Source: Actinomycetota bacterium (GTDB lineage: Bacteria > Actinomycetota > UBA4738 > JACQTL01). From it: DNA of 64,000 nt. Positions within the stretch are counted from its first letter, which is position 1; each line of letters opens with the position of its first letter. This document shows positions 1 through 41,358 of this stretch, one piece after another. The stretch covers positions 128,846-192,845 of the forward strand of contig JBJMLO010000008.1 in the NCBI GenBank assembly GCA_045805265.1. The letters are read 5' to 3'. The notes under the pieces were generated by a model. It was given only the letters and a program-made list of their open reading frames with translations. It did no database searches and had not been told where the DNA came from. Both the position numbers and the translations under genes were made by a program.

Positions 1-731
1 GCCCTGGCCGCGGCCGTGAGCCGAAGCCAGTTCCCGCCGAGCACCAGGGACTCCTGGTCCCGAGGGAGCCCGAGGGCCCGGACCTTCGCCAGCTCGACGC
101 CCGGGTGGAGCCACGGGCCGTCGGTCCCGAACAGCAGCTTGTGGGCCCCGCCCCGGCCGACGGCCTCGACGAGGAGATCGAAGCGTCGGATCCCCGAGGA
201 GTCCGCGTGCACGTTCGGGGCCCGCGCCAGGAGGTCGATCGTCTGCCGTTGCGCGCGCCAGTCGTCGGCGAAGCTCCCGAGGTGGGGGACGATGAACTGC
301 ACTTGCTCGTATTGCTGCGCCGCGAGGTCGACGGTGGCCACCTCCCCCATCACGTCGTAGAGCACCGGAAGCTCCAGCGACCCGGCCACCTCGCAGACTT
401 CACGGGTGATCCGGGAGTCGTGGCGGTGCAGCTTGATCCCGCACGCCCCCCAGCCCGTCACCGCCTCGGTCACCATCGCCCGGATCCGGCCGGCGTCCCG
501 TTTGGCGTCCACCATGGCGTAGCCGAAGAACCGGTCGGGCCGGGCGGCCACGATGCGGCCCACCTCCCGGTTGGCCCGGCGGTAGTCGGAGTTGAATGCC
601 GCGAACAGCACCGTCCGGCCGATCCCGGCCCGGGCGGCCCGCCGGAGGTAGGCCCCGAGGGGCGCGTCCGTGTCCCAGGGCCCGGTGAGGCCGTCCCCCT
701 GGCCTGCGTGACAGTGGCTGTCGACGATCAT
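1..731 (-). CDS. amidohydrolase-2 family metal-dependent hydrolase (partial; 3' end lies beyond the window start)
   Basis: Manual translation of the minus strand from the ATG at 731..729 gives MIVDSHCHAGQGDGLTGPWDTDAPLGAYLRRAARAGIGRTVLFAAFNSDYRRANREV...GIKLHRHDS...HADSSGIRRFDLLVEAV...LLFGTDGPWLHPG with no stop before nt 1. The MIVDSHCH start and the overall pattern are typical of TIM-barrel amidohydrolases. The ATG overlaps the stop of the upstream bioF-like gene (ATGA). It is absent from the ORF track because it has no stop inside the window. Confidence 0.6.
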   Translation of the reverse strand, partial: MIVDSHCHAGQGDGLTGPWDTDAPLGAYLRRAARAGIGRTVLFAAFNSDYRRANREVGRIVAARPDRFFGYAMVDAKRDAGRIRAMVTEAVTGWGACGIKLHRHDSRITREVCEVAGSLELPVLYDVMGEVATVDLAAQQYEQVQFIVPHLGSFADDWRAQRQTIDLLARAPNVHADSSGIRRFDLLVEAVGRGGAHKLLFGTDGPWLHPGVELAKVRALGLPRDQESLVLGGNWLRLTAAAR

Positions 732-1846
732 CCCGCGACCGCCCGCCTGCGGGCCCTCGGTTGGGCCGTCCGCCCGGCCCTCGGACGGGCTCGCCCCCCC
801 GAGGCCACCACGATCCCGAGCGCCTCGACCGTCCGGTCGATCTCGGCCTCGCGGTGACCGGCGGTGACGATGAACGACACCGCCAGCCCCCGGCCGCACC
901 TCGGCCGATGCAACACCGTGCGGACCCCGAGCTCGAGGAGGCCCCGGTGGGTGGCCTGGGGGTCGAGGCCGGGCTCCGACCGGACGGACTGGAGCGGGAA
1001 CAGGCCCTCCGAGAGGGGCACGCCGAGCGCCGAGGCGCCGGCGCGGAACCGGGTCACGAGCCGTGCGAGGCGCCGCCGGAGCGCGTCCCCCACCCGGGCG
1101 TTGGCTCCGAGGGCCCGGACGGCCGCGTTGAGATGGGCGTTCGAGGCCGGGCTGCAGTGGACCCGGGTCGCGCTCCTCGACTCGTATCGTCGAACCGCCG
1201 CCCGGCTGCCGGCCACGGCGGCGACCGGAACCCCCAGCCCCTTGGCGAGGGAGGCCACGACGATCAGACCCGCGTCCCCGACGCCGGTCCAGCGCGCGAC
1301 GCCGCCGCCTCCCCGGCCGTAGGGATGCCCGGGCGCCGGAGTTCCCAAGATGCCGAGGGCCTGCGTGTCGTCCACGACCACGGTGCCGGGCTGGAAGCGG
1401 GCGACCGCCAGGTAGTCACCGACGGGAGCCACGCCGCCGCAGCCGGGACACAGGCCGTCGGTCAGCACGAACACGGATCGGGGGTCGCCGGCCTCGGCCA
1501 GTGCCCGCCGAAGCGATGCCGGGTCGTGGTGTCGGAACCTCCTGACCTTCGCCCCGGCGCACCGCGCCCGTTCCGCGCCCCACGACGCGATCGGGTAGGT
1601 CCCCTCGTCCACCAGGATCGTCCTGGCCCCCATCGCGACGAACAGGTCCCAAAACGCGTGCAGAGTGGAGGGCGCCACGGTCGCCGCCGTCGTCCCGATG
1701 AGCCCGGCCACCCGGCTCCCCACCTCACGCGCCGCGGGCGCCTCGGCCAGCGCGGCCGGCCGGCCGGTCGTGAGCTCCGCCCACGGAGGCACGCGCTCGC
1801 CACCGTGCCGCATCCCGAGGTACAGGGAGGAAGTGAGGTCGATCAC
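728..1846 (-). CDS. bioF: 8-amino-7-oxononanoate synthase-like PLP-dependent alpha-oxoamine synthase (BioF family)
   Basis: Frame of track ORF 728..3283. DLTSSLYLG matches the BioF NFSSNDYLGL motif, SLAKGLG carries the PLP lysine, LVTRFRAGA matches E. coli BioF LITRFRAGV, and the C-terminal FIVTAGHREAEIDRTVEAL matches [21 protein letters not shown]. The start is set at the GTG at 1846, which overlaps the upstream gene's stop by 16 nt. No other start codon exists in this frame up to about 1980, so the N-terminus is uncertain. Confidence 0.7.
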   Translation of the reverse strand: MIDLTSSLYLGMRHGGERVPPWAELTTGRPAALAEAPAAREVGSRVAGLIGTTAATVAPSTLHAFWDLFVAMGARTILVDEGTYPIASWGAERARCAGAKVRRFRHHDPASLRRALAEAGDPRSVFVLTDGLCPGCGGVAPVGDYLAVARFQPGTVVVDDTQALGILGTPAPGHPYGRGGGGVARWTGVGDAGLIVVASLAKGLGVPVAAVAGSRAAVRRYESRSATRVHCSPASNAHLNAAVRALGANARVGDALRRRLARLVTRFRAGASALGVPLSEGLFPLQSVRSEPGLDPQATHRGLLELGVRTVLHRPRCGRGLAVSFIVTAGHREAEIDRTVEALGIVVASGGRARPRAGRTAQPRARRRAVAG

Positions 1847-1860
1847 GGCTCGCGCCGCGA

Positions 1861-3384
1861 TCAGGTCCGCACACCCACCCGCGACCCGTCGGACGAGACC
1901 TGCTTCGGGAGCCGCTTGCGGAGCAGCACGGCCGGGATCGTGGCGTTCACCTGCCCCGTCACGGTGCTCGCGGCCAGGTCCACGCCGGTCGCGGCGCGAT
2001 AGGCATGGAGGTAACCCTGGACCTCCGGGCGCCAGTACCGGGCCCAGTTCGCCGCGCTCTCGGGGTGGATCTGGCCCGTCCAGGCCCCGTATCGGATCGA
2101 GAGAAGGATCTTCTCCCCGAAGATCGCGAGGTCCCGGAAGTGCAGGATCGACGTGTCCGTCCACGCCTGCAGGCTCTTCATGGTCTCGACCGAGTCCATC
2201 CAGGGCTCCGGGTAGTCGACCATGATCCGCCGGGGCAGGAACTCCCGCATCTCCGGGCGGGCCAGGATCCACTGCTGCATCAGGAACTCCTGCCGCGCGG
2301 TCCACGGGAGGTCGCCATACTGGTTGTGGGCGCCCTGAGTCAGCTGGAGATGGACCTCCCGTAGGCCGTTCAGCACGGGGAACCCGTCGGCGACCACCGT
2401 CGTGTCGTCGTCCTCCTTGTAGAAGATCGAGCACAGCATCAGGAGCGTGTGGAACGCCTCGAGGAACCGGGACCGCGAGTCCGCGCCCCGGATCGCGGGG
2501 ATCGCCTTTCCGATGAGCTTCAGGCCGTACTCGTGGTCGTACTCGTAGGCCCGCCGGGGGATCGTGAGCCGGTGCTCCTCGTCCTGCACCCAGCCCCACA
2601 GCAGGTTGTTCAGTCCGCGGAGCGGGTCGATCTCCAGCATCGCGAGCGGGTCGCGCTCCGCGGGGCCCCGCCGGTTCTGGAACCGCCAGCTCATGGCGTT
2701 CGTGGTCTGGACCAACATGCCTTCCTCGAGCCAGTAGTTCCAGAGCAATTCGAGCAGACACGGCCGGGTGAGCTTCGAGCGGAGGATCCCGTAGCACTGG
2801 CGGGCTCCGTACGCCCTCCGGCCGTGGATCGGGACGTCGCCGAGCTTCAGCTGGACGACGTCGTGCAGGTACGGGATCGTTCGGTGCTGGCCCACGGCCC
2901 GGAGGTACCCGAGCCACTGGGAGTCGACATCGGGGGCCGACGCCGTCGGCCGGAGCAGCCGGAGCTCCTCCTCCTCGGCGACCCCCACGTCCGAGGTCAG
3001 CACTCCGAAGTCGGCGTCCTCGAACCTCGTGTTGACCGAGATGCCGAGGTTGTCGTCGGACTCGCCGATCACCACTCCGCAGTGCGCCATCATGAAGACC
3101 TCGGTGGCGATCTTCAGCAGCCGGTACGGCTCCACATCCGGGAACGGGAGCTGGCGCTTCGCCCGGATGTGGTCGAACTGTCCCTGTGCGCGCGGCGGCG
3201 GCGAGCCACACATGATCGGCTCGATGAACGCCGCGTAGTTCTCGAAGGCCAGCGCCTCCGCGCTGTTGCGGATCACGACCCACAGCGCTTGGTCCGGCGT
3301 GGGCGTCACGTCGGCCCGGCGCATCGTCACCTCCACGGGCTGCCGCGGCCGGCCGCCCGGCGCCTTGAACATCGCCTTAGTCAT
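1861..3384 (-). CDS. hypothetical protein, 507 aa, Trp/Tyr/Phe-rich globular, no family recognised
   Basis: Track ORF 1861..3966 trimmed to the internal ATG (MTKAMFKAPGG...), which is preceded by GGAGG. Composition is protein-like throughout and local GC is lower than the surroundings. The sequence upstream of this ATG in the same frame is low-complexity G/R/A. Confidence 0.7.
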   Translation of the reverse strand: MTKAMFKAPGGRPRQPVEVTMRRADVTPTPDQALWVVIRNSAEALAFENYAAFIEPIMCGSPPPRAQGQFDHIRAKRQLPFPDVEPYRLLKIATEVFMMAHCGVVIGESDDNLGISVNTRFEDADFGVLTSDVGVAEEEELRLLRPTASAPDVDSQWLGYLRAVGQHRTIPYLHDVVQLKLGDVPIHGRRAYGARQCYGILRSKLTRPCLLELLWNYWLEEGMLVQTTNAMSWRFQNRRGPAERDPLAMLEIDPLRGLNNLLWGWVQDEEHRLTIPRRAYEYDHEYGLKLIGKAIPAIRGADSRSRFLEAFHTLLMLCSIFYKEDDDTTVVADGFPVLNGLREVHLQLTQGAHNQYGDLPWTARQEFLMQQWILARPEMREFLPRRIMVDYPEPWMDSVETMKSLQAWTDTSILHFRDLAIFGEKILLSIRYGAWTGQIHPESAANWARYWRPEVQGYLHAYRAATGVDLAASTVTGQVNATIPAVLLRKRLPKQVSSDGSRVGVRT

Positions 3385-3422
3385 GTGCCTCTCCTTCCTC
3401 CGTCCCTCGCGGGCTCCGCCCG

Positions 3423-4508
3423 CTACTTCCGGCGCAGGTGCGCTTCGACGACGTACGTCCCGGTCGGCACCGCCCGGGCGTCGATCCGGACCCGGGACCC
3501 CACGTCCTCGAGCAGGCCGCCCGCCTCGACGGTCCACTGGAGCTCGTAGCCGGCCGGGATCGGGCGCGGGAGCCTCGCCTCGGCGAGGACCAGCCCGGCG
3601 GAGTCGGGCTCGCTGACGTCGATGCGCTCTACGAACTTCTGCTCCGCCTCGCTCAGGACCTCGAGGGTCGCTTTGTGGTGCTCCTCCGCCTCCGCGAGCG
3701 CCTCCTCCGCCAGGCGCAGCTCGGCGTGCGCCCGGCGTTCCGCCTCCGGCGCCTCGACGAGCGCCCGCTCGGCTGCCTCGAACTCCTTCCTGGCCTCCTG
3801 GATCTCGGCCGGGCTGGCCCCGGGCGCCTTCGCCTGCAGCGCGTCGTGGGCGGCGGCCAGTTGCCGGTCGAGTCGCTCCTCTCTGGCGCGCAGCCCTCTG
3901 AGCTTCGCCGGATCGGGGGCCGCGGCCTTGAGCTCCGCCTCCGCGTCCCGAAGCCCCTTCTGCCACTCGGCGAGCTCCACCAGGTGCGCGTCGAGTGCCT
4001 CCTGTTGCTCACGAAGGGTTCCCGCCGAGTTCGCGAGCGCCGTCTTCTGCGCACCGGCCGGAGCAGCGGTCGCGGCGGAGTCGGTGTGCTTCGCGGACGT
4101 GGCCACCACCGTGGTGGCCCTCTTCGCGCTCGCGTTCCACTGCCTCGCCGCCTTGACGACCGATGCGAGGGCGTCTCGGGCGCGCTTGATCGAGTCGTGC
4201 GTCGCCTCGGCCTGGGCGAGCTCCCTCGTCACGGCATCGTGAGCCTCGCGGGTCTCGTCGTATTTCGCCTGGAGGGCCTTCGCATCGGCGTCGGAGAGCT
4301 CCACGCCCTCGGCCAGGACCCGGAATCGGGCCTCCGCGTTCCTCCACTGGCGCTGAGCAGCTCCGTTGAGCCCGGTCGTCGAATCGGCCCGCTTCCGCGC
4401 CGTCGCCTGTTCCTTCCTCCGTTCCTCCAGGATCGCCTCCGCCGCCTCGACCTCGTCGATGGCGAGGGCGAGCAGCTCCTCCGGCGTCCTGGTGATCGTG
4501 CCGGCCAT
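3423..4508 (-). CDS. coiled-coil protein with a small C-terminal beta-rich domain (hypothetical)
   Basis: Track ORF 3423..4508 has an ATG with a GGAGG site 7 nt upstream. A long Ala/Glu/Arg/Lys-rich heptad-like region (AEAELKAAAP..., EARKEFEAAERALVEAPEAERRAHAELRLAEEALAEAEEHHKATLEVLSEAEQKF) is followed by ...PAGYELQWTVEAGGLLEDVGSRVRIDARAVPTGTYVVEAHLRRK. Confidence 0.75.
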   Translation of the reverse strand: MAGTITRTPEELLALAIDEVEAAEAILEERRKEQATARKRADSTTGLNGAAQRQWRNAEARFRVLAEGVELSDADAKALQAKYDETREAHDAVTRELAQAEATHDSIKRARDALASVVKAARQWNASAKRATTVVATSAKHTDSAATAAPAGAQKTALANSAGTLREQQEALDAHLVELAEWQKGLRDAEAELKAAAPDPAKLRGLRAREERLDRQLAAAHDALQAKAPGASPAEIQEARKEFEAAERALVEAPEAERRAHAELRLAEEALAEAEEHHKATLEVLSEAEQKFVERIDVSEPDSAGLVLAEARLPRPIPAGYELQWTVEAGGLLEDVGSRVRIDARAVPTGTYVVEAHLRRK

Positions 4509-4525: not shown

Positions 4526-5996
4526 TCAGGGCCGGGATCCAGCTCTCCGGCCGATCCGCACCATCGGGCGGGCCCCCGCCGGCCGCCCGCCGTGGATCCC
4601 GGGCGGCGACCTCCTGACCGTCCCCCCGCCTCCGCCCGGCGGGATCGCTCTCCGCCGGACGAAGGCACGGCCGTACGGGCCGACCAGACCCGGGGCCGGC
4701 TGAGCGCCCGCCCGCGCCGCCAGCGCGGCGTTTGCCCGGAGCGTGCTCTCGAGCGCCCAGTAGGAGATCAGCCGTCCCAGCAAGCGGTCCTCGCCCTCCG
4801 GCGTGATCAGTCCCCGGGCCCTCGCCTGGCCCACCACGGCGAAGGCGAGCGCTGGGCGGGTCCGGCGGACCGCCCGGGGGTCTGCGGTCCACTGCGCGTA
4901 CAGGCGGATCAGCCGATCCGGTGTGCGGTCCGCGGTCCGGACGGCATCGCCGACGGTGCGTCCCCGGAGCGTGCCGGGACGGTGTCCCAGGACCAGTCGG
5001 ACGAACGCCGGCATGGTCGCCAGCAGGGCCTGGAGCACCCGACGGCGCTGCGCCGGCAGTCCCTCTGCCGGATAGAACGAGGTCCAGACGCTCGCCAGAC
5101 GGCGCCACTGCCGGTCGGGGTACAGGGCTTCGCCGAACGCGCATGAGACATGGACCCGAATCCACGAGAAGGGGTGGGGGTCGTCCGCCGACATCCGGAA
5201 CACGAACGCGCGCGGCAGACTCACCAATCCGATGAGGCCCATGGTCGACGAGACGCCGACCCGGGCGATGGAGAACAGGTCCGCGACGACCTCCGAGATC
5301 CATCGCTCCCACATGCGCCATGCGAGCCGCTCCGGCCCCGCCGCCGCGAGGCCGGCCCGGTGGATCTCCGGGCGGAGCGATTCGACCAGCCCGAGGAGCG
5401 CAGCCGCTTGGTGACCGGCCTCGTGGATCAGGGAGGAGGAAATCCCGTATGTAGCCGATCATGCGCTCCCGAGGGATGCGGATGATCGACACAGGGTTCT
5501 CACCTCCCCCGGGCAGGCGGGTCCGCGCACGGCGGATGGCGCCGCCCAGCCCCCGATGCAGGTAGCACACGGCCGGTGGCGCGCGGAAGTACCCCCCGGG
5601 CAGGTCGAGGGCGTCCTGGACCGCCACGTCGAGACCCGACAGCCACAGCCCGGTCTCGTGTTCGCTTCGTTGCGTGATCGCGTCGGAGAACAGATCCAGC
5701 TGCGACAACGCCAGGTTGAACCGGAGCCGGAGGAACGTGTACCGCCGCTGCTGTTCGCTCGGCCGGGCGCCGCGCCCGTGGCCCCGCAGCCACCTGAGGT
5801 ACCGGAGGATCTGGCGTCGAAGCGTCCGCCTCCCGCCGATCAGGTACAGCTCGATGGCCGTCTGGGCCTCGGGCGACAGCGCCGCGGCGGGCAGCATCGT
5901 CTCCTGGAGGGCAAACGGCTTCACCCGATCCAGCCGAGCCAGCAGCGCGCGGGCCTCGCGCTCCAGCATCCACGTGGACAGGCCGTCGGTGGACAC
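4526..5996 (-). pseudogene. putative HExxH zinc metallopeptidase (about 490 aa) interrupted by a single frameshift near 5445-5460
   Basis: Track ORF 4521..5996 is protein-like only for its first ~185 aa (MSTDGLSTWMLEREARALL...IRIPRERMIGYI). Translating the second frame upstream of track ORF 4526..5314 gives ...SATYGISSSLIHEAGHQAAALLGLVESLRPEIHRAGLAAAGPERLAWRMWERWISEVVADLF..., which contains an HEAGH motif. The two frames abut at about 5447-5459. The combined length equals one ~490-aa protein. Confidence 0.5.
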
Positions 5997-5999
5997 GCG

Positions 6000-7166
6000 T
6001 CAGGCCCCGTAGACGATGATCCGGTTGCCCTGACGGACCCACGTGCCGGACCCCTGACCCCCGCCGGACCCGTCCGCCGGCCCCCCGCCGCCCCAGGTCG
6101 ACGGGCCGCCGTACCAGCCGCCGTACCCGGGCCCGTACCAGCGCCGGCGCGCGGACGGCGCGTACCCGTAGCCCGCGCGGCGCCGGGCGTAGGGGGCGCC
6201 CCGGTAGGCGTACCTCGGCATCCGGCGTCCGTAGCCCCGCCGGTAGGGGGCGCCGACCCGACGGGAGGGGCTCCGGTAGCCGTACCGGCCGAGCATCGCC
6301 GGCCGGCGAACGCCGACTCCCATCGGACGCCGCGGCACGACCGGACCGCCCAGGGAGCGGACCATCGACCGGTAGATGCCCGGCGCGTGGGAGCGCGCCG
6401 CTGCCGCCACCGCGGCGCGGGCCACCGCCTGGGGGCTGATGCCGGGCCGCGGCCGGGCCAGCGCCGCGTTCCTCGCCGACGCGGCAGCGAGGTTGACGAA
6501 GCGCCGGGCCACCTCGAACTCGGCCGCCTCGGCCGGCATGGCCTCCAGCTCGACCTCGAACAGGCCGCCCGCCATGGATCCGAGCTTGCTGCCGAGTGCG
6601 GTGCCGATCCCCGGCGCGATCATCGACCCGAGCGCCCCGCCCACGACCGGCAGGGCCTTCTTCGCCACGCTCTTCAGCACGCCGCCAAGGGCCCGCCCGA
6701 TCGGTGACTTGATGAAGCCGCCGACCCCGCGCGAGATGCGCTTGAAGACGTTGCCGAGGAACTGCTCGAGCTCCTGTTCGTTGTTGATCTCCAGCAGCTC
6801 GGAGGCCAGCTCGACCTCCTGGGCGCCGGAGAGCGGCGACTCCAGCTCGCCGCCGAGGATCGACCCGAGGATCCCGCCGAGGAACTGCTCGGTCTCGAAC
6901 TCGCCGCCGCCCTCGAACTCGCCTCCCTCGAACTCGCCGCCTCCCTCGAACTCGCCGCCGCCCTCGAACTCTCCTCCCTCGAACTCGCCGCCGCCCTCGA
7001 ATTCGCCGCCCTCGAACTCGCCGCCGCCCTCGAACTCGCCTCCCTCGAACTCGCCGCCTCCCTCGAACTCGCCGCCCTCGAACTCTCCTCCCTCAAACTC
7101 TCCGCCCTCGAACTCGCCTCCCTCGAACTCCCCGAATTCCGTCAGCTCCGCACCCTGCATGCCCAT
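6000..7166 (-). CDS. GEFEGG-repeat protein 1: acidic N-terminal tandem repeats, Gly-zipper-like amphipathic core, Arg/Tyr/Gly-rich C-terminal tail (hypothetical)
   Basis: Track ORF 6000..7166; the start is preceded by GGAGGAGG. The N-terminus holds about 18 copies of GEFEGG(G). The core reads ELASELLEINNEQELEQFLGNVF...ALPVVGGALGSMIAPGIGTALGSKLGSMAGGLF...EFEVARRFV...IYRS. The tail reads RRPMGVGVRRPAMLGRYGYRSPSRRVGAPYRRGYGRRMPRYAYRGAPYARRRAGYGYAPSARRRWYGPGYGGWYGG...RQGNRIIVYGA. Confidence 0.75.
   Translation of the reverse strand: MGMQGAELTEFGEFEGGEFEGGEFEGGEFEGGEFEGGGEFEGGEFEGGGEFEGGEFEGGGEFEGGEFEGGGEFEGGGEFEGGEFEGGGEFETEQFLGGILGSILGGELESPLSGAQEVELASELLEINNEQELEQFLGNVFKRISRGVGGFIKSPIGRALGGVLKSVAKKALPVVGGALGSMIAPGIGTALGSKLGSMAGGLFEVELEAMPAEAAEFEVARRFVNLAAASARNAALARPRPGISPQAVARAAVAAAARSHAPGIYRSMVRSLGGPVVPRRPMGVGVRRPAMLGRYGYRSPSRRVGAPYRRGYGRRMPRYAYRGAPYARRRAGYGYAPSARRRWYGPGYGGWYGGPSTWGGGGPADGSGGGQGSGTWVRQGNRIIVYGA
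6890..7135 (-). repeat. tandem 18-21 bp coding repeat array (about 18 units) encoding the GEFEGG(G) repeats
   Basis: The plus strand reads gaactcgccgccgccctcgaactcgcctccctc... repeated head-to-tail. Its antisense frame produces the spurious SNSPP-repeat ORF 6376..7590. Confidence 0.8.
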
Positions 7167-7195: not shown

Positions 7196-7873
7196 TCAGG
7201 AGCCGTACAGCACGATCGTTCGACCTCTCCGGATCCAGCGGCCCCCACGCGGCCAGGCGCGCGTCGAGCGACCCTGGAGCCGCGGCAGGAGACCGGGCGC
7301 GTAGATCCGCGCCGAGCTGCGGGCGGCCAGCCGCGCCACCGCGGAGGGCGGCAGGTGCGCCGGCGCGGCCACCGCCCGCCGGGCCGCGGCGCTCACGAAC
7401 CGCACGAGCTGGCGGGCGATCTCGAACTCGCGGTCCTCGCCCGAGAGGCCCTCGAGCTCCAAGCCGAGCAGCGTGCCTGCCGCTGCCCCGGCCCTGGCGC
7501 CGATGTCCCCGTACCCGCCCACGCGCTCGCCGATGGCCCGGCCCACGACCGGCAAGGCCTGCTTCGCGGCGCTCTGAAGGCTGTCCTTGAGGATGGTCCC
7601 GAGCGCCCGGCCGGTGTCCGAGCGGATGAAGTTCCCCGCGGCCCGCCCGACCGCCCCGAACACGTTCCCGAGGAACTGCTCGAGCTCCTGCTCGCTCGAC
7701 ACCTCGAGGAGCTCCGAGGCCAGCTCGATCTCCTGCATCTCGCCGAGCGGGCTCTCCAGCTCGGCGGGCGACTCGAACTCGCCGACTTCGAACTCAGAGC
7801 CCTCGAACTCGCCGGGGCCCTCGAACTCTCCGACCTGCCCGTGCTCGAGTTGCGTCCGTCCGATGTCGTGCAT
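7196..7873 (-). CDS. GEFEGG-repeat protein 2 (shorter paralog of 6000..7166)
   Basis: Track ORF 7196..7942 trimmed to the internal ATG (MHDIGRTQLEHGQVGEFEGPGEFEGSEFEVGEFES...), which has GGAGG 5 nt upstream. It shares ELASELLE..SEQELEQFLGNVF, ALPVVG, EFEIARQLV, IYAPG and the C-terminal R.GRTIVLYGS with gene 1. It lies 23 nt upstream of gene 1. Confidence 0.75.
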   Translation of the reverse strand: MHDIGRTQLEHGQVGEFEGPGEFEGSEFEVGEFESPAELESPLGEMQEIELASELLEVSSEQELEQFLGNVFGAVGRAAGNFIRSDTGRALGTILKDSLQSAAKQALPVVGRAIGERVGGYGDIGARAGAAAGTLLGLELEGLSGEDREFEIARQLVRFVSAAARRAVAAPAHLPPSAVARLAARSSARIYAPGLLPRLQGRSTRAWPRGGRWIRRGRTIVLYGS

Positions 7874-7980
7874 CCATACCTCCCGCGCCCTCCGGGCGGC
7901 GCCCCGGCCGTCGGCGCCGCGTTGCCATGGCCACGCCCTCACCTCCTCGATCCGTCGATCCGCGTCGCTGTCCCCATCGG

Positions 7981-7997
7981 TGCACGTTCCGTGCCGG
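7981..7997 (-). promoter_or_regulatory. candidate sigma-54-type -24/-12 element (CGGCACGGAACGTGCAC on the minus strand) about 110 nt upstream of the GEFEGG-repeat operon
   Basis: The GG-N10-GC spacing is conserved, with 2 mismatches to TGGCACG-N4-TTGCA. It is 14/17 identical to the element upstream of the rpoN-like gene. It is the only such match in the 275-bp gap between the rpoN-like gene and the first GEFEGG gene. Confidence 0.4.
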
Positions 7998-8146
7998 GCT
8001 GCCTCGGCGATCGACGTCGGGGGGGGACGCGAACGACGCTTCGGCTCGGGGGATCCGCGCCTCGCCAGGACGAAGCGACCTTCGCCTCATTTGGAGCGGG
8101 CCGGCGGCGCACGACGGGGACGGGGCATTTCCGGTGACGCCTGGGC

Positions 8147-9457
8147 TCAGCGATACGTGCTGGGAAGGATCCGGAGGCGGCTGCGGTACTTGGCGACCGT
8201 CCGTCTCGCGACGCGGTGACCGGCTCGGCGGAGCCGCTCGGACAGCTCCGCGTCGCTGAGGGGCCGGTCCTCCGCGGCGATGATGTCCCGAAGGCGGGCG
8301 CGCATCCCGAGCGAGCCGTCGAAGAACGCGCCGAAGGGGACAACGCGGCGCGACGGCAGGAGGACGTACTTCTCGGCAGTCGCGCGGCTCACCGTGGATG
8401 GACTGAGACCGAGTTCCCCCGCGACATCGGCGCGGGTCAGGCGCAGGTCGGTGGCCGGATCGCCGGACATCAGGTCCGGCCGCCGGTCCGCAAGGTGCTC
8501 GGTGATCCTCCGCATCGTCGACCAGCGCTCCCGGAGCCGGGCCAGCAGGAAGTCGCCCCTCCTGACCAGCTCGCACATCTTCCGGTCGCTGCGGGCGACG
8601 CCGCGGAACGCCGGGTCCACGCGGAGGGGGAGACGTCGCTCCTCGAGGACCTCGACTTGAAACGTCCCCGGCCGGTCGGCGCGGCCCAGGACCGCGACGT
8701 CCGGCTGGACCGGCGGGGCCGTCACGCCGGCTCCCGATTCGTCGTCCACGTCGGGACGCGGGAGGAGCTCCCGCCGGATGTACTCGCGGGCGTCCGCGAC
8801 GTCGGCAACGGACACGCCGAGCAGCCGCGCGATGGAGGCCGTGGCTCCCCGGGCGAGCGACTCGAGGTGATCGGCGACGACCGCGCGGGCGACGGGATGG
8901 AAGTTGCCTTCGCCGGCCAGCCGATCGATCTGCAGCAGGAGGCAGTCTCGGAGGTCCCTCGCGGCCACGCCCACGGGACCGGTCTCCCGCAGGGTCCGGA
9001 CGACGCGCTCGACGGACGCCGGGTCTGCGCCGGCGATGCGCGCCAGCTCCTGGATCCCTTCCCTGAGGTATCCCCTGTCGTCCAGGCTGGCGACGACGGC
9101 GGCGGCGATCCCGGCGTCCCGCGCCGGCAGCACGAGCATGAGCTCCCGGAGCAGCCGCTCGGCGAACGATTCCGTCGAGACGGCCGCCGGCCCGGTCGGG
9201 GGGTCGTCCGGGTCGCGGAGACTCGCCCGGGAGGGCCGGCTCGTGCAGTAGATGCAGGGTGGGTCGGCGGGGAGTCCGCAGCCGCCGCACACGTGCACCT
9301 CGTCCTCGACCAGCGCGGGGTTCTCGGAGAGCTCGCGGGCCACGGTCTGTTCCAGCTCGATCCCCGAGAGGGCCAGGAGGCTCGCGTAGGCGACGAGCGC
9401 GGGCGAGGGAGACATCCGGAGCTCCTGCGTCACGTCGAGCGCGACCGTGAGCGACAC
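8147..9457 (-). CDS. rpoN: RNA polymerase sigma-54 factor (RpoN) homolog, 436 aa, with a CxxC...CxxC insertion in region II
   Basis: Frame of track ORF 8147..10300. The C-terminus ADVAGELGLSPSTVSRATAEKYVLLPSRRVVPFGAFFDGS...PLSDAELSERLRRAGHRVARRTVAKYRSRLRILP aligns with the E. coli sigma-54 HTH and RpoN box (ARRTVAKYRE). The core-binding region ETGPVGVAARDLRDCLLLQI is near-identical to E. coli DPVGVAARDLRDCLLIQL. Region I reads VSLTVALDVTQELRMSPSPALVAYASLLALSGIELEQTVARELSENPALVE. The start is set at the GTG 14 codons upstream of the first ATG, with AGGAGG 6 nt upstream. The insertion HVCGGCGLPADPPCIYC follows region I. Confidence 0.85.
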   Translation of the reverse strand: MSLTVALDVTQELRMSPSPALVAYASLLALSGIELEQTVARELSENPALVEDEVHVCGGCGLPADPPCIYCTSRPSRASLRDPDDPPTGPAAVSTESFAERLLRELMLVLPARDAGIAAAVVASLDDRGYLREGIQELARIAGADPASVERVVRTLRETGPVGVAARDLRDCLLLQIDRLAGEGNFHPVARAVVADHLESLARGATASIARLLGVSVADVADAREYIRRELLPRPDVDDESGAGVTAPPVQPDVAVLGRADRPGTFQVEVLEERRLPLRVDPAFRGVARSDRKMCELVRRGDFLLARLRERWSTMRRITEHLADRRPDLMSGDPATDLRLTRADVAGELGLSPSTVSRATAEKYVLLPSRRVVPFGAFFDGSLGMRARLRDIIAAEDRPLSDAELSERLRRAGHRVARRTVAKYRSRLRILPSTYR

Positions 9458-9504
9458 CGAATCCCTCCTGTCCGACGAGAGTGTGTCCCTCAACCCACGG
9501 TCAG

Positions 9505-9521
9505 TGCAAGGTCCGTGCCAA
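9505..9521 (-). promoter_or_regulatory. canonical sigma-54 -24/-12 promoter element (TGGCACG-GACC-TTGCA) directly upstream of the rpoN-like gene
   Basis: The minus strand reads ...GGGGT TGGCACG GACC TTGCA CTGACCGTGGGTTGAGGGACACACTCTCGTCGGACAGGAGGGATTCG GTG. This is a perfect match to TGGCACG-N4-TTGCW. The GC dinucleotide lies about 48 nt upstream of the GTG start, leaving a ~35-nt leader with the AGGAGG site. Confidence 0.55.
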
Positions 9522-9607
9522 CCCCCGGCGGCGTCTCGGCGCTCAGCTCTCGACTTCCCCCTGGACCCGCCGGTATCCTCGGCCGGGTCTCGGATGGAGG
9601 GGAATGA

Positions 9608-10924
9608 ATGACGCTTCGTCGCATGGTCCGGTTGGCGCTCCCGGCGATGGTGGGGAGTGCGCTCGTGCTGGGGGGTGGACTGCGGGCCTGGGCGGCCTCC
9701 GGCGACCTCGACGGCAGCTTCGGGGGTGGTGACGGGATCGCGACGCAGGACTTCGGCGGCGCAAGTGCCTCCCACGGCCATGCGGCCCTGCTGCAGCCCG
9801 ACGGCAAGATCGTCGCGGCCGGGTCGACGGTGCTGCCCTCCCGTTTCGACGCCGACTTCGGCGTCGCCAGGTTCCTGTCCAACGGAGACCCGGATCCCGC
9901 CTTCGGGACGGGCGGCGCCGTCTCGACCAACTTCCTGGGGGGGCACGATGTCGCCCGCGCGATCCTCCGGCAGAGCGACGGGAAGCTCGTGGTGGTCGGC
10001 GACGCGTGCGAGCTCGACGACTCGAGCGCCTGCGGGTTCGCTGTCGTGCGGTACCTGCCCTCCGGGAAGCGGGACCTGTCCTTCAGCGGCGATGGCCGAG
10101 AGCGCATCGAGTTCCCTGGGTACGACGACCTCACCGGCTTCAACGGCGCGCTGATGTCCGGCGGAAAGATCCTGATCGTCGGCGACGGGAACAAGACCGC
10201 CGACGGCCAGTCCGACATGGTGCTCGCCCGGCTGAACGGGAACGGCTCGCTCGACACGACGTTCAGCGGAGACGGGCGGCAGACCCTCGACCCGTCGCAC
10301 GGCGGCGACGACGGCATGTCCGGCGTTGCGATCCAGAGCGACGGCAAGATCGTGGGGTCCGGGTGGGCCTACAACGGCAGCGACGGCCGGTGGTGCGTGG
10401 TCCGCCTCAAGCCGAACGGCACCCTCGACACCACCTTCAGCGGCGACGGCGTCGTGATCAAGAACGTGGTGCCTGGCCAGGACGACTACTCCAACGACCT
10501 CATCGTGTTGCCCTCGTCGCGCATCCTGGCGATCGGCCGGGCGGTGAACGCGGTGGGGGTCTCCACCGGGGGCGACGTCGTCCTCCTCCGGCTGACGTCC
10601 GGGGGCGTCCCGGACACGTCGTTCGGCGCCGGCGGCCTGCGGAAGGCAGACTTCGGGGGCGACGAGGAGCCCGTCAGCGTCGCCCGCGACAGCACCGGGC
10701 GGATCGTGATGTCCGGCCGGGTCGGGAACGGCACGGGGTTCGGCGTGTTCCGGTTCACGGCGGCCGGAGCTCCCGACACCACCTTCGCCGGCGACGGACT
10801 GGCCGTGGAGGGCGGCGGCGCGCTGGCCGCCGGCATCGCGGTCCAGGGGAACGACCGTCCGGTGGCGGTGGGCAGCACGTCCCAGGGTCCGGGCGATCTC
10901 GAGGTCGCCAGGTTCCTGGCCTGA
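9608..10924 (+). CDS. secreted beta-propeller repeat protein (delta-60 / SBBP-like repeats, repeated LDxxFGxxG motifs)
   Basis: Track ORF 9608..10924. The ATG is preceded by GGAGGGG. The N-terminal signal peptide is MTLRRMVRLALPAMVGSALVLGGGLRAWAASG. Repeats of the form DG.LD.SF..DG...... / G.IV..G occur throughout. Confidence 0.8.
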   Translation: MTLRRMVRLALPAMVGSALVLGGGLRAWAASGDLDGSFGGGDGIATQDFGGASASHGHAALLQPDGKIVAAGSTVLPSRFDADFGVARFLSNGDPDPAFGTGGAVSTNFLGGHDVARAILRQSDGKLVVVGDACELDDSSACGFAVVRYLPSGKRDLSFSGDGRERIEFPGYDDLTGFNGALMSGGKILIVGDGNKTADGQSDMVLARLNGNGSLDTTFSGDGRQTLDPSHGGDDGMSGVAIQSDGKIVGSGWAYNGSDGRWCVVRLKPNGTLDTTFSGDGVVIKNVVPGQDDYSNDLIVLPSSRILAIGRAVNAVGVSTGGDVVLLRLTSGGVPDTSFGAGGLRKADFGGDEEPVSVARDSTGRIVMSGRVGNGTGFGVFRFTAAGAPDTTFAGDGLAVEGGGALAAGIAVQGNDRPVAVGSTSQGPGDLEVARFLA

Positions 10925-17644: not shown

Positions 17645-20095
17645 TCATTCCGCTCTCAGCGCCAGCGCGGCCTGGGTCCGCGCGGCTCGAAATCCCGGCG
17701 CCGCGGCGACGAGGTTCGCGGCGAGGAACGTGGTGGCGGCGATCGCCAGCACGATCACCGCGGGCACGGTCGCCTCGGGAACCACGCCCAGCCCCTCCGC
17801 GAAGGCCGTCCACGCCCACCTGCCGGCGGTCACGCCGAGCGGGATCCCCGCGGCCACCGCCACCACCGCGGTGGTGGTGGCCTGCCAGACCACGGTCCCC
17901 CACACCTGCCGCCGGACGAACCCCAGGGTCTTCAACACGGCCAGGTCCCGGCGGCGCCGGCGTACCGCGGCGGCCAGGGCGTGGGCCAGCGTGGCGGCGG
18001 CGATCACCCCCAGCCCGAACGCGAGGAAGACCGGCAGGCTGCGCACCCGCCCGACGTTCTGGAGGTCCTCGGCCAGGTCCGGGCTGGCCACCGTTCCGCC
18101 GATCCGCCGATCGACCCGATTCAGCGAACGCACCGCCGCGCCACGGTCGACCCCGGGCCGAAGGCGGACGGCGACGACGTTCTCGGCCGCCTCGGGGACG
18201 AGGGCCCGGAGCCCGTCGAACGTCATCCCCGCGCCGTGGCCGAGGGTGTCGGTTCCACCACCCTCCGGGACCACGACGCGCCCCGTGACCCGCATGTCGA
18301 GGGTTCGCGTGCCGACCCGGGCACGGACGGTGTCGCCCAACCCCACACCGAGCTCCTGCATGGTCTTCGACCCGAAGGCCACCTCGCCGTCGTCGGCCGG
18401 CCACGTCCCCTGGACCACGGTGGGCGAAAGGTGGCCCCTGACCTGGTCGAGGGCCCACACGGTCACCCGTGTCGAGCGGCCCGGCACGCCGAACTCCACC
18501 TTCGTGATGACGTTGCCCCCCGCGAAAGCGCCGACATAATTGTTGTGCCGCAGCGGCGGGAACACACGCCGGGCGGTGTCGCCCCCGTAGGAGTTGCCCA
18601 GCCCGTAATCCCAGTTCCATCCCGCCAGGCGCGGGGTCGAGAGGAGCCTGTCGAAGCTCGAGTGGAACGTGAACGACGCGACCACGGCCGACACGGCGAG
18701 GGCGAGGCCCACCATGGTGCTCCACACCGGGACGGCGGTTCGCCCCCGGCCCGGGAGCAGCGCCATGCGCACGCCCGACGTCACGGTCGGGGGGGCGCCC
18801 GCATCGGCCAGCGCACCGACCACCCGGCTCGGCCGGGAGCCGCCCTCGAGGACGATCACGCCCTGCGGGTCCCCCCGGGCCACGGCGGCGCGCCACGCCG
18901 GCACGATCGCGAGGAGGACGGCGGCGACGACCACCCCCGCGGCGCCGAGGATGATGACGAGGACGTCCACCGACAGGCCCGGGTTCGGCTCGACCACCCA
19001 GGCTCGGCCGATCGGCATCAGCACGGAGAGCCCCACGGCGATGCACACCGCGATCGCCGAGCCGACCGCGCCGATCAACGCACCGCGGAGGATCCCTCCG
19101 GCGAACAGCTGACCCCGGCTGAAGCCGAGGGCCCGGAGCGTCGGGTGCTCGATGCTGTCGAGGAACTGCTGCCTGGCCAGTGCCTGCCCCACGACCAGCA
19201 GCCCCACCAGCGCGGCGAGGCCGGCGAAGATCCACAGGGCGATGGCCAGCGGGTGGAGCTGGTTGGTGCTGACCGCCCTCGCGTCGCCGAACGTGCCCTC
19301 CCCGATCTGCTCGCCGCGCGCCAGCCGGTCGACGTCCCGAGAGAAGCGGATGACGTCCGCCTGACCGTGACGGAGCCGCACCAGCATCGCCGGCAGGCGC
19401 TCGAACCGGTCCCGGACGCTCCGATCGAAGGCCGGGGTGAAGAACACGTCGGAGTACGCGGCATCCGCGGTCAGCGAGGCCTCATCCACCACGATGCCGA
19501 CGATGCGGAACCTCATGGCGCCCGCGAAGACCCCCGGAGGCGGGGACGAGGGGTCCCCCTGGACCAGGCCGGGATCAACCCCCGGTTTGAGGAACCGCGC
19601 GGTGAACGTCGACCCCGGCCGCACCGGCACGTGCAGGTTCGCCTCCACCTGCGAGACGGAGGCGTAGCCCACGGTGACCTCGTCGGGCCGTGACGGGTCG
19701 GCCAGTCGCCCCTCCAGAACCTTCACCCTGCCGAACTCGAGGCCCCGGACGCCCAGGCAGACGGCGCCGCTGCCCTGCCCCACCGGATACAGCTTGCCGC
19801 CCTGCGTCGGCAGGAAGTTGTACGAGAAGCACCGGACGGACCCGGCGACCTCGGGCAGCGATGCGACCCGGCCCAGGTCGAGCCGACGGAAGCCGTGGAC
19901 GTCGATCGTCCCGATCCCCACGTCGGCGGGTTGCTCGTACGCGAGGAGGCGCTCGTACGCAGAATCAGTTCGCCGAGCCCCGGCGGCGGTTCCCAGAACG
20001 AGTCCCCCGGCAAGCCCCAGCACCACGGCCAGCGCGGCCCAGGATCGCCACCGGCGCCCGAGCGCCGAGCGCACCAACGCCCACGTCGCGATCAT
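17645..20095 (-). CDS. ABC transporter permease, two-FtsX-domain MacB-like (816 aa), copy 1
   Basis: Track ORF 17645..20551 trimmed to MIATWALVRSALGRRWRSWAALAVVLGLAGG (ATG at 20095, or the GTG at 20101 overlapping the upstream stop). The LKTLGF motif appears twice. Confidence 0.85.
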   Translation of the reverse strand: MIATWALVRSALGRRWRSWAALAVVLGLAGGLVLGTAAGARRTDSAYERLLAYEQPADVGIGTIDVHGFRRLDLGRVASLPEVAGSVRCFSYNFLPTQGGKLYPVGQGSGAVCLGVRGLEFGRVKVLEGRLADPSRPDEVTVGYASVSQVEANLHVPVRPGSTFTARFLKPGVDPGLVQGDPSSPPPGVFAGAMRFRIVGIVVDEASLTADAAYSDVFFTPAFDRSVRDRFERLPAMLVRLRHGQADVIRFSRDVDRLARGEQIGEGTFGDARAVSTNQLHPLAIALWIFAGLAALVGLLVVGQALARQQFLDSIEHPTLRALGFSRGQLFAGGILRGALIGAVGSAIAVCIAVGLSVLMPIGRAWVVEPNPGLSVDVLVIILGAAGVVVAAVLLAIVPAWRAAVARGDPQGVIVLEGGSRPSRVVGALADAGAPPTVTSGVRMALLPGRGRTAVPVWSTMVGLALAVSAVVASFTFHSSFDRLLSTPRLAGWNWDYGLGNSYGGDTARRVFPPLRHNNYVGAFAGGNVITKVEFGVPGRSTRVTVWALDQVRGHLSPTVVQGTWPADDGEVAFGSKTMQELGVGLGDTVRARVGTRTLDMRVTGRVVVPEGGGTDTLGHGAGMTFDGLRALVPEAAENVVAVRLRPGVDRGAAVRSLNRVDRRIGGTVASPDLAEDLQNVGRVRSLPVFLAFGLGVIAAATLAHALAAAVRRRRRDLAVLKTLGFVRRQVWGTVVWQATTTAVVAVAAGIPLGVTAGRWAWTAFAEGLGVVPEATVPAVIVLAIAATTFLAANLVAAAPGFRAARTQAALALRAE

Positions 20096-20097
20096 CG

Positions 20098-22563
20098 TCA
20101 CTCCGTCCTCAGGACCATGGCGGGCCGGGTCCGGGCGGCGCTCCGGCCCGGGAGCGCCGCGATCAGGTTCGCCAGGAGGATCGCGGCCGGCACGGTGACG
20201 GCCAGGGTCACGCTCGGCATCAGGAGGTCCGAGGCCACCCCGAGTCGCCCCGCGAAGAGGGCCCAGGCCCACCGTCCTCCGGCCACGCCGAGCGGGATGC
20301 CGACGAGGAGCGACACGGCGATCAGCGTGGTGGCCTGCCAGGCAACGGTGGCCCGCACCTGCCGCCGAGAGAACCCGAGCGTCTTCAGCACGGCCAGATC
20401 TCGGCGCCGGCGGCGGACCGACGTCACCAGGACATGGACCATCAGCGCGGCAGCGAGAAGCGCGAGGAGGGCGGAGAGCAGCATCGGCGTCGCCACGACC
20501 CGCTGGTAGCTCGAGATGTCGGCCGGGGGGGCCGGCCCGAGCTGGTCGCACTCCCCCTGAGGACAGCCGCCCTGGTAGAGCGTACGGCGAAGGCGTGCCG
20601 TGGCCGCGCCGACGTCCGTCCCGGGCCGGAACCGCACCAGCACGAAGTTGTAGGCGTGGCTCGGCGAGGGCCGGACCGGCCCGTGGGGGCCGAACACCTG
20701 GGGCACGGGCAGATCCGAGGCGATCACCTCCGCCCCCGCTCCGAGGCTGGTCGGGGTGAAGGACCCCTGTCCGAGCGTCGGGAACACCGCCTCCCCCACC
20801 ACCCGCATGTTCCTCGTCGCGCCGGACGGGAGCCGGACGCTCACCGTCCGCCCGATCCCGGTCCCGAGATCCCGAGCCGTCGTCGCCCCCAGCACGATCT
20901 CGTCGGGACCGGTCGCGTTCCGCCCGAGGAGCAGCGTGGGATGGACGTCGCCGTTGAGGGGGTCGATCCCGACCGCGGGGACCCTCGCCGAGCCGATCGA
21001 CAGGTTCCCGTACACGCCCCCCGAGTACGTCCCGATGGCCTGGTCATGCGCCGCGACGCCGCGGACGTCGTCCACGGAGGATGCCGCGAACCCGAAGTCG
21101 ACCATGGCGTCCCAGTTCCATCCGTACCGGGACGGGTCGTGCACCAGCCGGTCGAGGTTCGTGCCGAACGTGGCCGCCGCGATCACGGCGGCGACGCCGA
21201 CGGCGAGGCCGGCCAGCGCGCTCCGCACCGGAACCGCGGTACGACCTCGTCCCGGCTCCACGGCCATGCGCACGCCGGTGGCAGCGGAAACCGGGAGGCC
21301 GGCCCGCACGGCGGCCGCCCCCAGCCGGGACACCGGCGCCGGCCGGTCCGCGACGCCCTGGGCCGAGCCGGGGACGCCGGCGGCCCTCCAGGCCGGTACG
21401 GCCGCGGCGCCCACCAGGACGAGGATCGCGGCTGCGGACCCGCCCCCCAGGATCGCCCAGTTCACGGCGAAGCCGGGGTGGAGCTCCACGAGCCGGACCG
21501 CGCCAATCGGGAACAACGGGGACGCAGCCGCCGCAACGGCCATCCCGATCACGCAGCCGGCGGCCGCCACGGCCGCCACGCGGCTGATGGCCACCGCGGC
21601 CAGCTGGGGGCGGGTCATCCCCAGCGCCCGCAGCGTGGGGTACTCGAGCCCCTCCGTCCACACCTGGCGCGACACGAGCTGCGAGGCGGCAAGGAACGAG
21701 GCCACGGCCGCGAGCAGCGCGAACAGGCCGAGCGCTGCGGACTCCGGCGCGATGGCCCGCCGGACCCGCTCGTGCTGGTCGGCCTGGTTCGCAAAGAAGA
21801 GGCCATGGGCCCGGGGGTCCGCCTTCGCGAGGCGCCGGGCCTCGTCACGGAACCCGGCGAGATCGGTCCCCGGCCGGAGCTGCACGTACATGCCGTCGAA
21901 GTCGAGCGCCCGGAACCGGAAGCTCCGGTAGAAGGCCGGGGTCGAGACGATCGTCGGGGCCACGTCGAGCCGATTCGCCGGGACGACGTCGGTGGACGTG
22001 ACGCCGACGCCCACGACCCGGAGGGTGATGGGGGTGCCCTTGGAGACCGGAGTCGTCGAGGTGTCATCGGGGGAGAACGGGAACACGACCGCCCGAACCT
22101 TGTCGCCCACCGAGAGGTGCAGCCGGCCGGCGGCGACGCGGTTGATCAGGACCTCGGTCCGGCTGCGGGAGTCGGGGAGCCTGCCCGCCAGGAGGCGGGG
22201 GCGCTCGATCGACCTCAGGAACCTGCCGTCGACGCTCGCGAGGTCGTTGAACGCCCCGAACTGGCGGCCGTCCGGGAGGAGCAGCGCGGTCGGGACCCCC
22301 GCGACGACCCCGACGCGCCGCACCTCCGGGAGGGCCGCGACCCGGTCGTAGAAGCCGTGGAGGCCCGTCCCCAGCACCGAGACCAGCGCGTCGGCCGCGT
22401 ACCCCTCCCGCAGGAAACGCGGGTACGCCGTCTGGGTCCGCCGGGCGCCGGCGGCCGCCGTGAGCACGACGCCGAGCGCGACCGCGATGACCGCGGCGAG
22501 CGCCACCGACGAGCGCCATCTCGACCGAAGCTCGGCGGCGACCCTGACCCGGACGGCGCCCAT
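20098..22563 (-). CDS. ABC transporter permease, two-FtsX-domain MacB-like, copy 2
   Basis: Track ORF 20098..22737 trimmed to MGAVRVRVAAELRSRWRSSVALAAVIAVALG. The start overlaps the stop of copy 3 (ATGA). Confidence 0.85.
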   Translation of the reverse strand: MGAVRVRVAAELRSRWRSSVALAAVIAVALGVVLTAAAGARRTQTAYPRFLREGYAADALVSVLGTGLHGFYDRVAALPEVRRVGVVAGVPTALLLPDGRQFGAFNDLASVDGRFLRSIERPRLLAGRLPDSRSRTEVLINRVAAGRLHLSVGDKVRAVVFPFSPDDTSTTPVSKGTPITLRVVGVGVTSTDVVPANRLDVAPTIVSTPAFYRSFRFRALDFDGMYVQLRPGTDLAGFRDEARRLAKADPRAHGLFFANQADQHERVRRAIAPESAALGLFALLAAVASFLAASQLVSRQVWTEGLEYPTLRALGMTRPQLAAVAISRVAAVAAAGCVIGMAVAAAASPLFPIGAVRLVELHPGFAVNWAILGGGSAAAILVLVGAAAVPAWRAAGVPGSAQGVADRPAPVSRLGAAAVRAGLPVSAATGVRMAVEPGRGRTAVPVRSALAGLAVGVAAVIAAATFGTNLDRLVHDPSRYGWNWDAMVDFGFAASSVDDVRGVAAHDQAIGTYSGGVYGNLSIGSARVPAVGIDPLNGDVHPTLLLGRNATGPDEIVLGATTARDLGTGIGRTVSVRLPSGATRNMRVVGEAVFPTLGQGSFTPTSLGAGAEVIASDLPVPQVFGPHGPVRPSPSHAYNFVLVRFRPGTDVGAATARLRRTLYQGGCPQGECDQLGPAPPADISSYQRVVATPMLLSALLALLAAALMVHVLVTSVRRRRRDLAVLKTLGFSRRQVRATVAWQATTLIAVSLLVGIPLGVAGGRWAWALFAGRLGVASDLLMPSVTLAVTVPAAILLANLIAALPGRSAARTRPAMVLRTE

Positions 22564-34998: not shown

Positions 34999-35507
34999 GG
35001 TCCCGCGCGCCGTGGGCGGCGTTCCTCGGAGCGTTCTGGCCGTTCGTCCTGGGCAGCATCCTCGTGGCCGGCGGCCTGGCCGCCATCGTGATCGGGTACC
35101 TGGGCGTGTCCGGGACCGTGTACGTCCCGCTCCAGATGCCGTATCTGGTGAGCGGCGCGGTGCTCGGGCTGGCGCTCGTGATCGTTGGAACCGCGCTGTT
35201 CGTCGTGCAGGTCCTGACCCGCCAGACCCGGCTGCTCCGCCGCCTGCTCTCGGAGGTCGAGGCGCCGCCCCAGCCGGCCCTTCCCGCCGAGTCGACGGCG
35301 GCCACCGAGAAGCTTCACCCCGACGGCGACGGCGCCGCGGTCAACGGCAGCAGCGTGTTCGCCGTGCGCGGAGGCCGGTGGTTCCACCGCCAGGGGTGCA
35401 TCCTGCTCGAGGGCAAATCGTCCCGCGCCATGGCCCCCCGCGAGGCCGAGGACCTCGGGCTCGCGCCGTGCCGGCTGTGCGACCCGGTGGTTCCGGCCGG
35501 AACGTAA
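34995..35507 (+). CDS. small membrane protein (two TM helices) with a Cys-containing C-terminal tail, hypothetical
   Basis: C-terminal part of track ORF 33729..35507. The ATG overlaps the preceding stop (ATGA). MRSRAPWAAFLGAFWPFVLGSILVAGGLAAIVIGYLG.... Confidence 0.6.
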   Translation: MRSRAPWAAFLGAFWPFVLGSILVAGGLAAIVIGYLGVSGTVYVPLQMPYLVSGAVLGLALVIVGTALFVVQVLTRQTRLLRRLLSEVEAPPQPALPAESTAATEKLHPDGDGAAVNGSSVFAVRGGRWFHRQGCILLEGKSSRAMAPREAEDLGLAPCRLCDPVVPAGT

Positions 35508-35535
35508 GGCCGTCTGTAGACTGAAATCCCGCCGA

Positions 35536-35611: not shown

Positions 35612-35626
35612 GAGAGAACATGCGGG

Positions 35627-37347: not shown

Positions 37348-37389
37348 GAGAGTCTCGACCGCCGGACGTAGCTGAAGAGCTGTTCGCGT

Positions 37390-41304: not shown

Positions 41305-41358
41305 GTGCCCAACAGAACAGCGCCTCGATTGGAGAACGGTGACCCTGGATGGTGACCG

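Follow-up and report, generated by a model that had tools for sequence, protein, structure and literature searches.

The window analysed here, a stretch of 64,000 nucleotides, comes from a metagenome-assembled genome whose label, Actinomycetota, is taken from NCBI MAG names only; no WhiB motif, which would have served as independent taxonomic support, is found within it. Its left part holds a gene for a sigma-54 (RpoN) protein and, after a non-coding gap, seven co-directional genes on the minus strand, as an earlier note on this DNA had described; the third is frameshifted and the seventh runs off the start of the window. The gap, put at 275 bp in that note, measures 273 bp between the stop codon at 8147 and the start codon at 7873. 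Read along the minus strand, the genes are as follows.

8147 to 9457, minus strand: sigma-54 (RpoN) gene, 436 aa, with region I, a CxxC-N7-CxxC insert, the core-binding domain, the DNA-binding domain and the RpoN box
7196 to 7873, minus strand: g7, operon gene 1, 225 aa, with an N-terminal MHDIGRTQLE segment, an acidic GEFEG repeat that varies, a helical body and, at the C-terminus, a beta hairpin
6000 to 7166, minus strand: g6, operon gene 2, 388 aa, paralogous to g7 and containing an extended GEFEGG repeat
4526 to 5996, minus strand: g5, operon gene 3, interrupted by a frameshift near 5450; intact orthologues have about 470 aa
3423 to 4508, minus strand: g4, operon gene 4, 361 aa, a predicted coiled coil with 27-34% identity between loci
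1861 to 3384, minus strand: g3, operon gene 5, 507 aa, the most conserved protein of the cluster
728 to 1846, minus strand: g2, operon gene 6, a BioF/Kbl-like PLP-dependent enzyme of the aminotransferase class I/II fold
1 to 731, minus strand: g1, operon gene 7, Amidohydro_2 (PF04909), its 3' end cut by the window edge

The sigma-54 protein matches the Pfam domains PF00309 Sigma54_AID (29.8 bits), PF04963 Sigma54_CBD (1.7e-32) and PF04552 Sigma54_DBD (8.9e-22), aligns with solved sigma-54 structures (E = 3e-35), and carries an RpoN box, ARRTVAKYR, that is invariant among its relatives. Its score against NCBIfam TIGR02395, 202.7 bits, falls below the equivalog cutoff of 277 and marks it as a divergent protein, which is probably why the source record annotates it as hypothetical. 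Right after region I, a zinc-ribbon-like CxxC-N7-CxxC insert (residues 57-71) replaces region II; it is invariant in the clade, and a limited literature search found no description of it. About 56 metagenomic relatives, several of them labelled Streptosporangiaceae or Actinomycetota, are 59-68% identical to the protein. The next relatives, at 38-41% identity, are Chloroflexota proteins (loci L005-L011 and L017), the nearest outside the cassette; they share the CxxC...CxxC insert, which is present in 109 of the top 120 matches. A genome-collection scan with the single protein returned no relative, and an alignment-based scan of the collection, for which the pattern was the universal RpoN box, gave matches dominated by ordinary rpoN genes.

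The proteins of the operon are for the most part unfamiliar. For g7, modelled with a pLDDT of 74.7, no family or fold match was found, and its family has more than 1,400 members. The GEFEGG repeat of its paralogue g6 is encoded by a degenerate tandem DNA repeat (6894-7134, period 15/18), and in homologues the length of the acidic repeat is highly variable, between the conserved MHDIGRTQLE segment and the conserved helical body. In g5, tblastn finds residues 6-182 at 5981-5451 and residues 182-439 at 5449-4667, in different frames; orthologues are also split in L082, L083 and L085, at other positions, and are intact in L081 and L084, so that the frameshift could be either an assembly error or real decay. 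A weak SMC-like match is the only one for g4. The all-helical g3 comes from a family that numbers thousands, none of them annotated; searches of Pfam, NCBIfam and PDB gave no match for it, and its structure model is poor. The assignment of g2 comes from a match to NCBIfam bioF (2.4e-20, below cutoff), and its orthologues match PF00155. In two variant clusters (L164 11055-18061 and L086 17135-19851), OmpA-like proteins, a GH25 lysozyme with PG_binding_1, VanY and an M20 peptidase are encoded between g2 and g1; these inserted genes hint at a link to the cell wall or peptidoglycan, which we offer as a lead only. Elsewhere in the window, the minus strand carries four paralogues in tandem at 17645-27415, each coding for about 810 aa and alike at the N-terminus, and next to them, at 27418-28170, an ABC ATPase-like gene. 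Visual comparison of the N-terminal sequences, the sole basis of this reading, makes them look like an expanded permease array.

Two short elements of the kind recognised by sigma-54 lie on the strand of these genes, one before the sigma-54 gene and one in the gap before g7, and the gap also contains two palindromes.

9504 to 9520, minus strand: -24/-12 element upstream of the sigma-54 gene, TGGCACGGACCTTGCAC, with its GC at 9507-9506; 24.0 bits, the best score in the window
8071 to 8084, no strand: UAS1, putative distal activator site, CGAAGGTCGCTTCG, a perfect palindrome CGAAG-N4-CTTCG
8030 to 8043, no strand: UAS2, putative proximal activator site, CGAAGCGTCGTTCG, one mismatch to CGAAG-N4-CTTCG
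7980 to 7996, minus strand: -24/-12 element of the operon promoter, CGGCACGGAACGTGCAC, with GG at 7995-7994 and GC at 7983-7982

The operon element was first pointed out in the earlier note, which gave it as 7981-7997; the sequence is indeed present on the minus strand and in the gap between the sigma-54 gene and the operon, one base away from that position. Its reported GG-N10-GC geometry holds, with 10 nt between the two dinucleotides, and so does its 14/17 identity to the rpoN element, from which it differs at three positions. The element is intergenic, on the same strand as g7 and 108 nt before its start codon. It agrees with 10 of the 12 specified positions of TGGCACG-N4-TTGCW; the mismatches are C for T at -26, which is unique to the window among 17 loci, and G for T at about -15/-14. 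As the GC of a sigma-54 promoter generally occupies -13/-12, transcription of the operon would be expected to start at about 7970, leaving a 5' UTR of about 97 nt, and for rpoN the predicted start is about 9494, some 37 nt ahead of its GTG codon at 9457. The operon 5' UTR was also considered as an RNA element and rejected, the consensus fold being weak (-5.9 kcal/mol) with almost no covariation. Rfam found one tRNA elsewhere in the window and no other RNA element in it. Past this tRNA gene (35536-35608), the GC content drops to 62-70%, versus 72-78%, over an island of some 6.5 kb (35500-42000) in which the coding signal is weak at 36.8-40.8 kb; the island is possibly an integrated element.

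The sigma-54 consensus is GC-rich, as is the window (72% GC), and a chance match at the operon site is therefore the first explanation to be weighed. The pattern GGCACG-N5-TGCA occurs twice in the 64 kb, both strands included, at exactly the two flagged sites, where 0.21 occurrences are expected, and two matches to this 15-mer pattern were reached in one of 100 shuffles, a result that leaves chance some room. With up to three mismatches allowed, the 17-mer has two matches against 0.17 expected. The earlier note had suggested a matrix search as a check on whether the motif recurs at random frequency in such DNA. Run on the whole window with a weight matrix built from 30 sites of other loci only, the window itself being excluded, this search ranks the rpoN site (9503-9521, 24.0 bits) and the operon site (7979-7997, 18.1 bits) first and second of 128,000 positions, with the third-best score at 10.5 bits. 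The operon site is thus the weaker of the two, and yet the exact expectation at 72% GC is only 0.037 chance matches per window at or above 18.1 bits (0.00075 at or above 24 bits). The location and orientation of the site also fit a promoter. In the Logan contigs of SRR17459137 and SRR17459139, two independent assemblies, the DNA is 100% identical to the window across both sites.

We compared 17 loci that carry a linked sigma-54 gene, the product of which is 43-100% identical to that of the window. Every one of them retains the two elements in the same positions while the flanking non-coding DNA has diverged, with the proviso that L116 shows the operon element only, because its contig starts inside the sigma-54 gene and the rpoN element is out of view. 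In the eight loci examined first, one -24/-12 element precedes the sigma-54 start codon, by 29-76 nt, and another lies in the sigma-54/g7 gap; the mean column identity of the gap alignment is 54%, and its invariant columns fall into three islands (CGAA-N6-TTCG twice and GGCACG-N5-TGC) and a few isolated columns. A metagenome scan seeded with g3 yielded 80 further loci with GC contents of 44-73%, among which 10 have a linked sigma-54 gene and 9 of these 10 have both elements. In many of the loci that lack a linked sigma-54 gene, the operon is headed by one TGGCAC-N6-TGC in its own orientation, and over 840 kb of related loci GGCAC-N6-TGC is found 56 times on the operon strand versus 18 times on the other. 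Since the site is kept in every orthologous locus within diverged DNA, and the loci are not near-identical copies of one another (43-68% protein identity), these conservation data effectively refute a chance match, to which we would assign a very small probability.

Conservation of a site does not by itself specify what binds there, and in the window the operon element reads as a perfect inverted repeat, GCACG-GAA-CGTGC, as an operator of a conventional dimeric transcription factor might. This symmetry is, however, not conserved: the orthologous sites read GCACGGAACTTGCG, GCACGGAACATGCG and GCACGCGAATTGCA, and the conserved 5' TGG lacks a symmetric CCA partner. What is conserved is the asymmetric sigma-54 consensus, which is duplicated upstream of the sigma-54 gene itself, and we thus consider an operator most unlikely. 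The proposal of the earlier note that the two sites may define the recognition motif of this sigma factor can be followed insofar as both fit sigma-54; the motif is nevertheless the canonical consensus TGGCACG-N4-TTGCA, and no new specificity is apparent. Likewise, the operon can be called the regulon of this sigma factor only to the extent that neither the 64-kb window nor the orthologous loci of 21 kb contain a third site.

The gene order points to a coherent unit. Seven contigs with sigma-54 relatives have the same arrangement, namely, sigma-54, a gap of 136-283 bp, g7, g6, g5, (g4), g3, g2 and g1, with g4 present in the closer relatives only. The genes upstream of sigma-54 differ in every locus, which places the boundary of the module just upstream of the rpoN element. 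At its other end lies a further gene, which in the present case falls outside the window.

Beginning 42 nt left of position 1 (3436 to 4251, minus strand, on contig L170): activator gene, convergent with the operon, with PF00158 and AAA_lid_14

Contig L170 is identical to the window over positions 1-3394 and extends 859 nt further into this gene; no GAFTGA protein is encoded inside the window. A convergent Sigma54_activat gene is seen in six of the seven contigs (not in L087), and the activator is convergent at the end of the operon in every locus long enough to show it. Full-length orthologues possess an ERGAFTGA loop, the Walker A motif GESGTGKE, the lid domain and a C-terminal helix-turn-helix; their N-terminal region is short (about 70-100 aa) and has no recognised sensor domain.

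The two 14-bp palindromes are probably the binding sites of this activator. Of 16 linked loci, 15 have the pair ahead of the operon promoter. In the window, the centres of UAS2 and UAS1 are 41 bp apart and lie 41.5 and 82.5 bp, respectively, upstream of the -24 GG, which corresponds to about -66 and -107 relative to the predicted start. Across the linked loci, the two sites are separated by 41-43 bp, except in two loci where the figure is 31 bp, and the distance from UAS2 to the GG falls into classes of 50.5-52.5, 41.5 and 28.5 bp. These distances shift in increments of roughly one helical turn, about 11 bp, which is the pattern to be expected of an activator confined to a single face of the DNA. 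The palindromes also extend to loci without a linked sigma-54 gene, where at least one occurs within 450 nt upstream of g7 in 30 of 43 loci and at least two in 19 of 43, against a background of 91 per 604 kb, or 0.077 expected per 450-nt window. In agreement with this, those clusters end in a gene for an orthologous activator (51-64% identity).

The operon site displays every testable defining feature of an enhancer-dependent sigma-54 promoter, and we regard it as quite likely that 7980-7996 is the -24/-12 core of such an activator-dependent promoter, driving the seven-gene operon on the minus strand. In the mechanism that we envisage from these comparisons, RNA polymerase with the sigma-54 protein encoded at 8147-9457 would bind the GG (-24) and GC (-12) of the element at 7980-7996 as a closed complex. 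The AAA+ activator that belongs to the cluster, encoded convergently past the end of the operon, would bind the palindromes at 8071-8084 and 8030-8043, contact the closed complex through looping of the intervening DNA and open the promoter with ATP, and transcription would then begin near 7970. Closed complexes of sigma-54 are stable without an activator, and the holoenzyme might instead stay at the site as a roadblock or occluder, exerting negative control. A precedent for a negative effect is the rpoN gene of Rhizobium leguminosarum, which is negatively autoregulated according to work cited in PMC3538637. Such a role is more plausible for the element at 9504-9520, which has no activator site, than for the operon site, which is equipped with two conserved, helically phased palindromes of the activator type at typical distances and with a dedicated GAFTGA activator. 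Nor is there a sigma-70-like promoter detectable by an E. coli-type scan that the complex could occlude. We therefore judge a roadblock at the operon site to be very unlikely and retain its reading as an activated promoter.

The same kind of promoter is well known from systems of the glnAp2/NtrC and pspA/PspF type. These have in common with the present locus the GG-N10-GC core in TGGCACG-N4-TTGCA, two dyad-symmetric activator sites about 60-120 bp upstream in helical phasing (binding here being predicted), and a GAFTGA AAA+ activator with a C-terminal helix-turn-helix. Unlike them, the window belongs to a host labelled Actinomycetota, its activator is without a recognised sensor domain, the palindrome CGAAG-N4-CTTCG is specific to the cluster, and the target genes are of no known family.

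The copy at 9504-9520 would place the sigma-54 gene itself under sigma-54 control, creating a feed-forward or autoactivating loop. In an alignment of rpoN upstream regions, this element is the sole conserved island, and no palindrome or other conserved block was found upstream of it in the linked loci. Activation distance is known to be no obstacle for NtrC, and the operon enhancer, 1.44 kb downstream, may serve the rpoN promoter as well; alternatively, the activator may act on it from solution, or the element may mediate negative autoregulation. For an autoactivating loop to work, some sigma-54 would have to be made at a basal level without sigma-54, and the activator gene would have to be free of sigma-54 control. 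In keeping with the latter, no sigma-54 element or palindrome was found upstream of the activator genes of the related loci. With respect to the former, a scan of 7700-9800 found neither a sigma-70 promoter nor a terminator, the sigma-70 model being of the E. coli type, which does not cover actinobacterial promoters; given that no terminator-like structure separates rpoN from the operon, read-through from one into the other is possible.

Comparable circuits have been described in other bacteria. In the nifU2-rpoN superoperon of Rhodobacter capsulatus (Cullen et al. 1994, as recounted in PMC6925177), a sigma-54 gene dedicated to one pathway is likewise situated inside the cluster under its control, and autoactivation proceeds from a sigma-54- and activator-dependent promoter together with a weak constitutive promoter. 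In that account, the sigma-54 promoter is upstream of nifU2 and has NifA sites, whereas here it lies directly upstream of rpoN with no conserved activator site; a counterpart of the weak constitutive promoter was not picked up here by the E. coli-type sigma-70 scan of 7700-9800. The prxS-rpoN2 system of Mesorhizobium loti and Rhizobium etli (PMC3538637) resembles the present one in having a specialised rpoN behind a -24/-12 promoter, carried in a transferable block along with its activator and targets. These rhizobia, however, also possess a housekeeping rpoN1 that can prime the loop, and their prxS-rpoN2 promoter has a NifA site, while the rpoN promoter of the window has none. A further parallel is provided by the Chloroflexota, in which rpoN genes (L005, L006, L007, L009, L010, L011 and L017) have a sigma-54-type -24/-12 element of 12-27 bits located 7-36 nt upstream of the estimated start. 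No such element is seen near the start of rpoN in the loci of most other sampled phyla. The control of rpoN by its own product may be a lineage trait. In the Chloroflexota loci, rpoN does not adjoin the g7-g3 operon, unlike in the window, and the actinobacterial module gives the impression of a Chloroflexota-type rpoN that, along with its promoter, has been attached to a sigma-54-dependent operon common in other settings.

Another reading is that the promoter worked in the ancestor and that in this genome the cassette, acquired horizontally, is now an inactive or decaying remnant in which the site would no longer drive meaningful transcription. The Actinobacteria, or Actinomycetota, are said to lack a functional sigma-54 system (PMC3162934, PMC12316311); the latter source includes RpoN-like genes from three cultured actinomycetes in a supplementary table, namely, Alloactinosynnema sp. 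L-07 (CRK59238), Modestobacter marinus (MODMU_2490) and Citricoccus sp. (E7744_01085), and its main text holds the phylum to be effectively without a functional RpoN. The frameshift of g5 near 5450 and the C at -26, found in this locus alone among the 17, point in the same direction. Against this, the ORFs of sigma-54, g7, g6, g4, g3, g2 and g1 are all intact, and their codon usage is of the coding type; the frameshifts of g5 differ in place between assemblies and may themselves be assembly errors; and the site still scores 18.1 bits when the next-best in the window reaches 10.5. In addition, purifying selection is implied by dozens of relatives, 59-68% identical in sigma-54, whose genes are full-length and in which the two promoters and the two activator sites have been retained. 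A decaying remnant accordingly seems to us unlikely, and we favour a promoter that is in use. Since promoters, phased enhancer sites and a GAFTGA activator are kept down to 43% sigma-54 identity, this sigma-54 is likely to be working, and their conservation argues that sigma-54 is functional in at least this clade.

Elements of this kind are known; it is the context, a self-contained module in a host labelled Actinomycetota, that has not been described before. As to the system as a whole, the comparisons of sequence and gene order are compatible with a self-sufficient, horizontally spread module operating inside the Actinomycetota, in which a sigma-54 with its own promoter, an enhancer pair and a dedicated activator would serve essentially a single operon; relatives of the operon elsewhere would use the rpoN of their hosts, and the actinobacterial versions would bring a Chloroflexota-type rpoN along. 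It would form an autoactivating, possibly bistable loop in control of an uncharacterised and possibly cell-wall-related system of GEFEG-repeat proteins. To this wider picture we give an even chance of being right. If the system is active, enhancer-dependent transcription exists in the Actinomycetota, and a minimal, portable sigma-54 circuit would be at hand, with a single sigma factor, activator, enhancer and operon. A large family of unannotated genes, represented here by g3 and g7, would thereby gain a defined regulatory handle.
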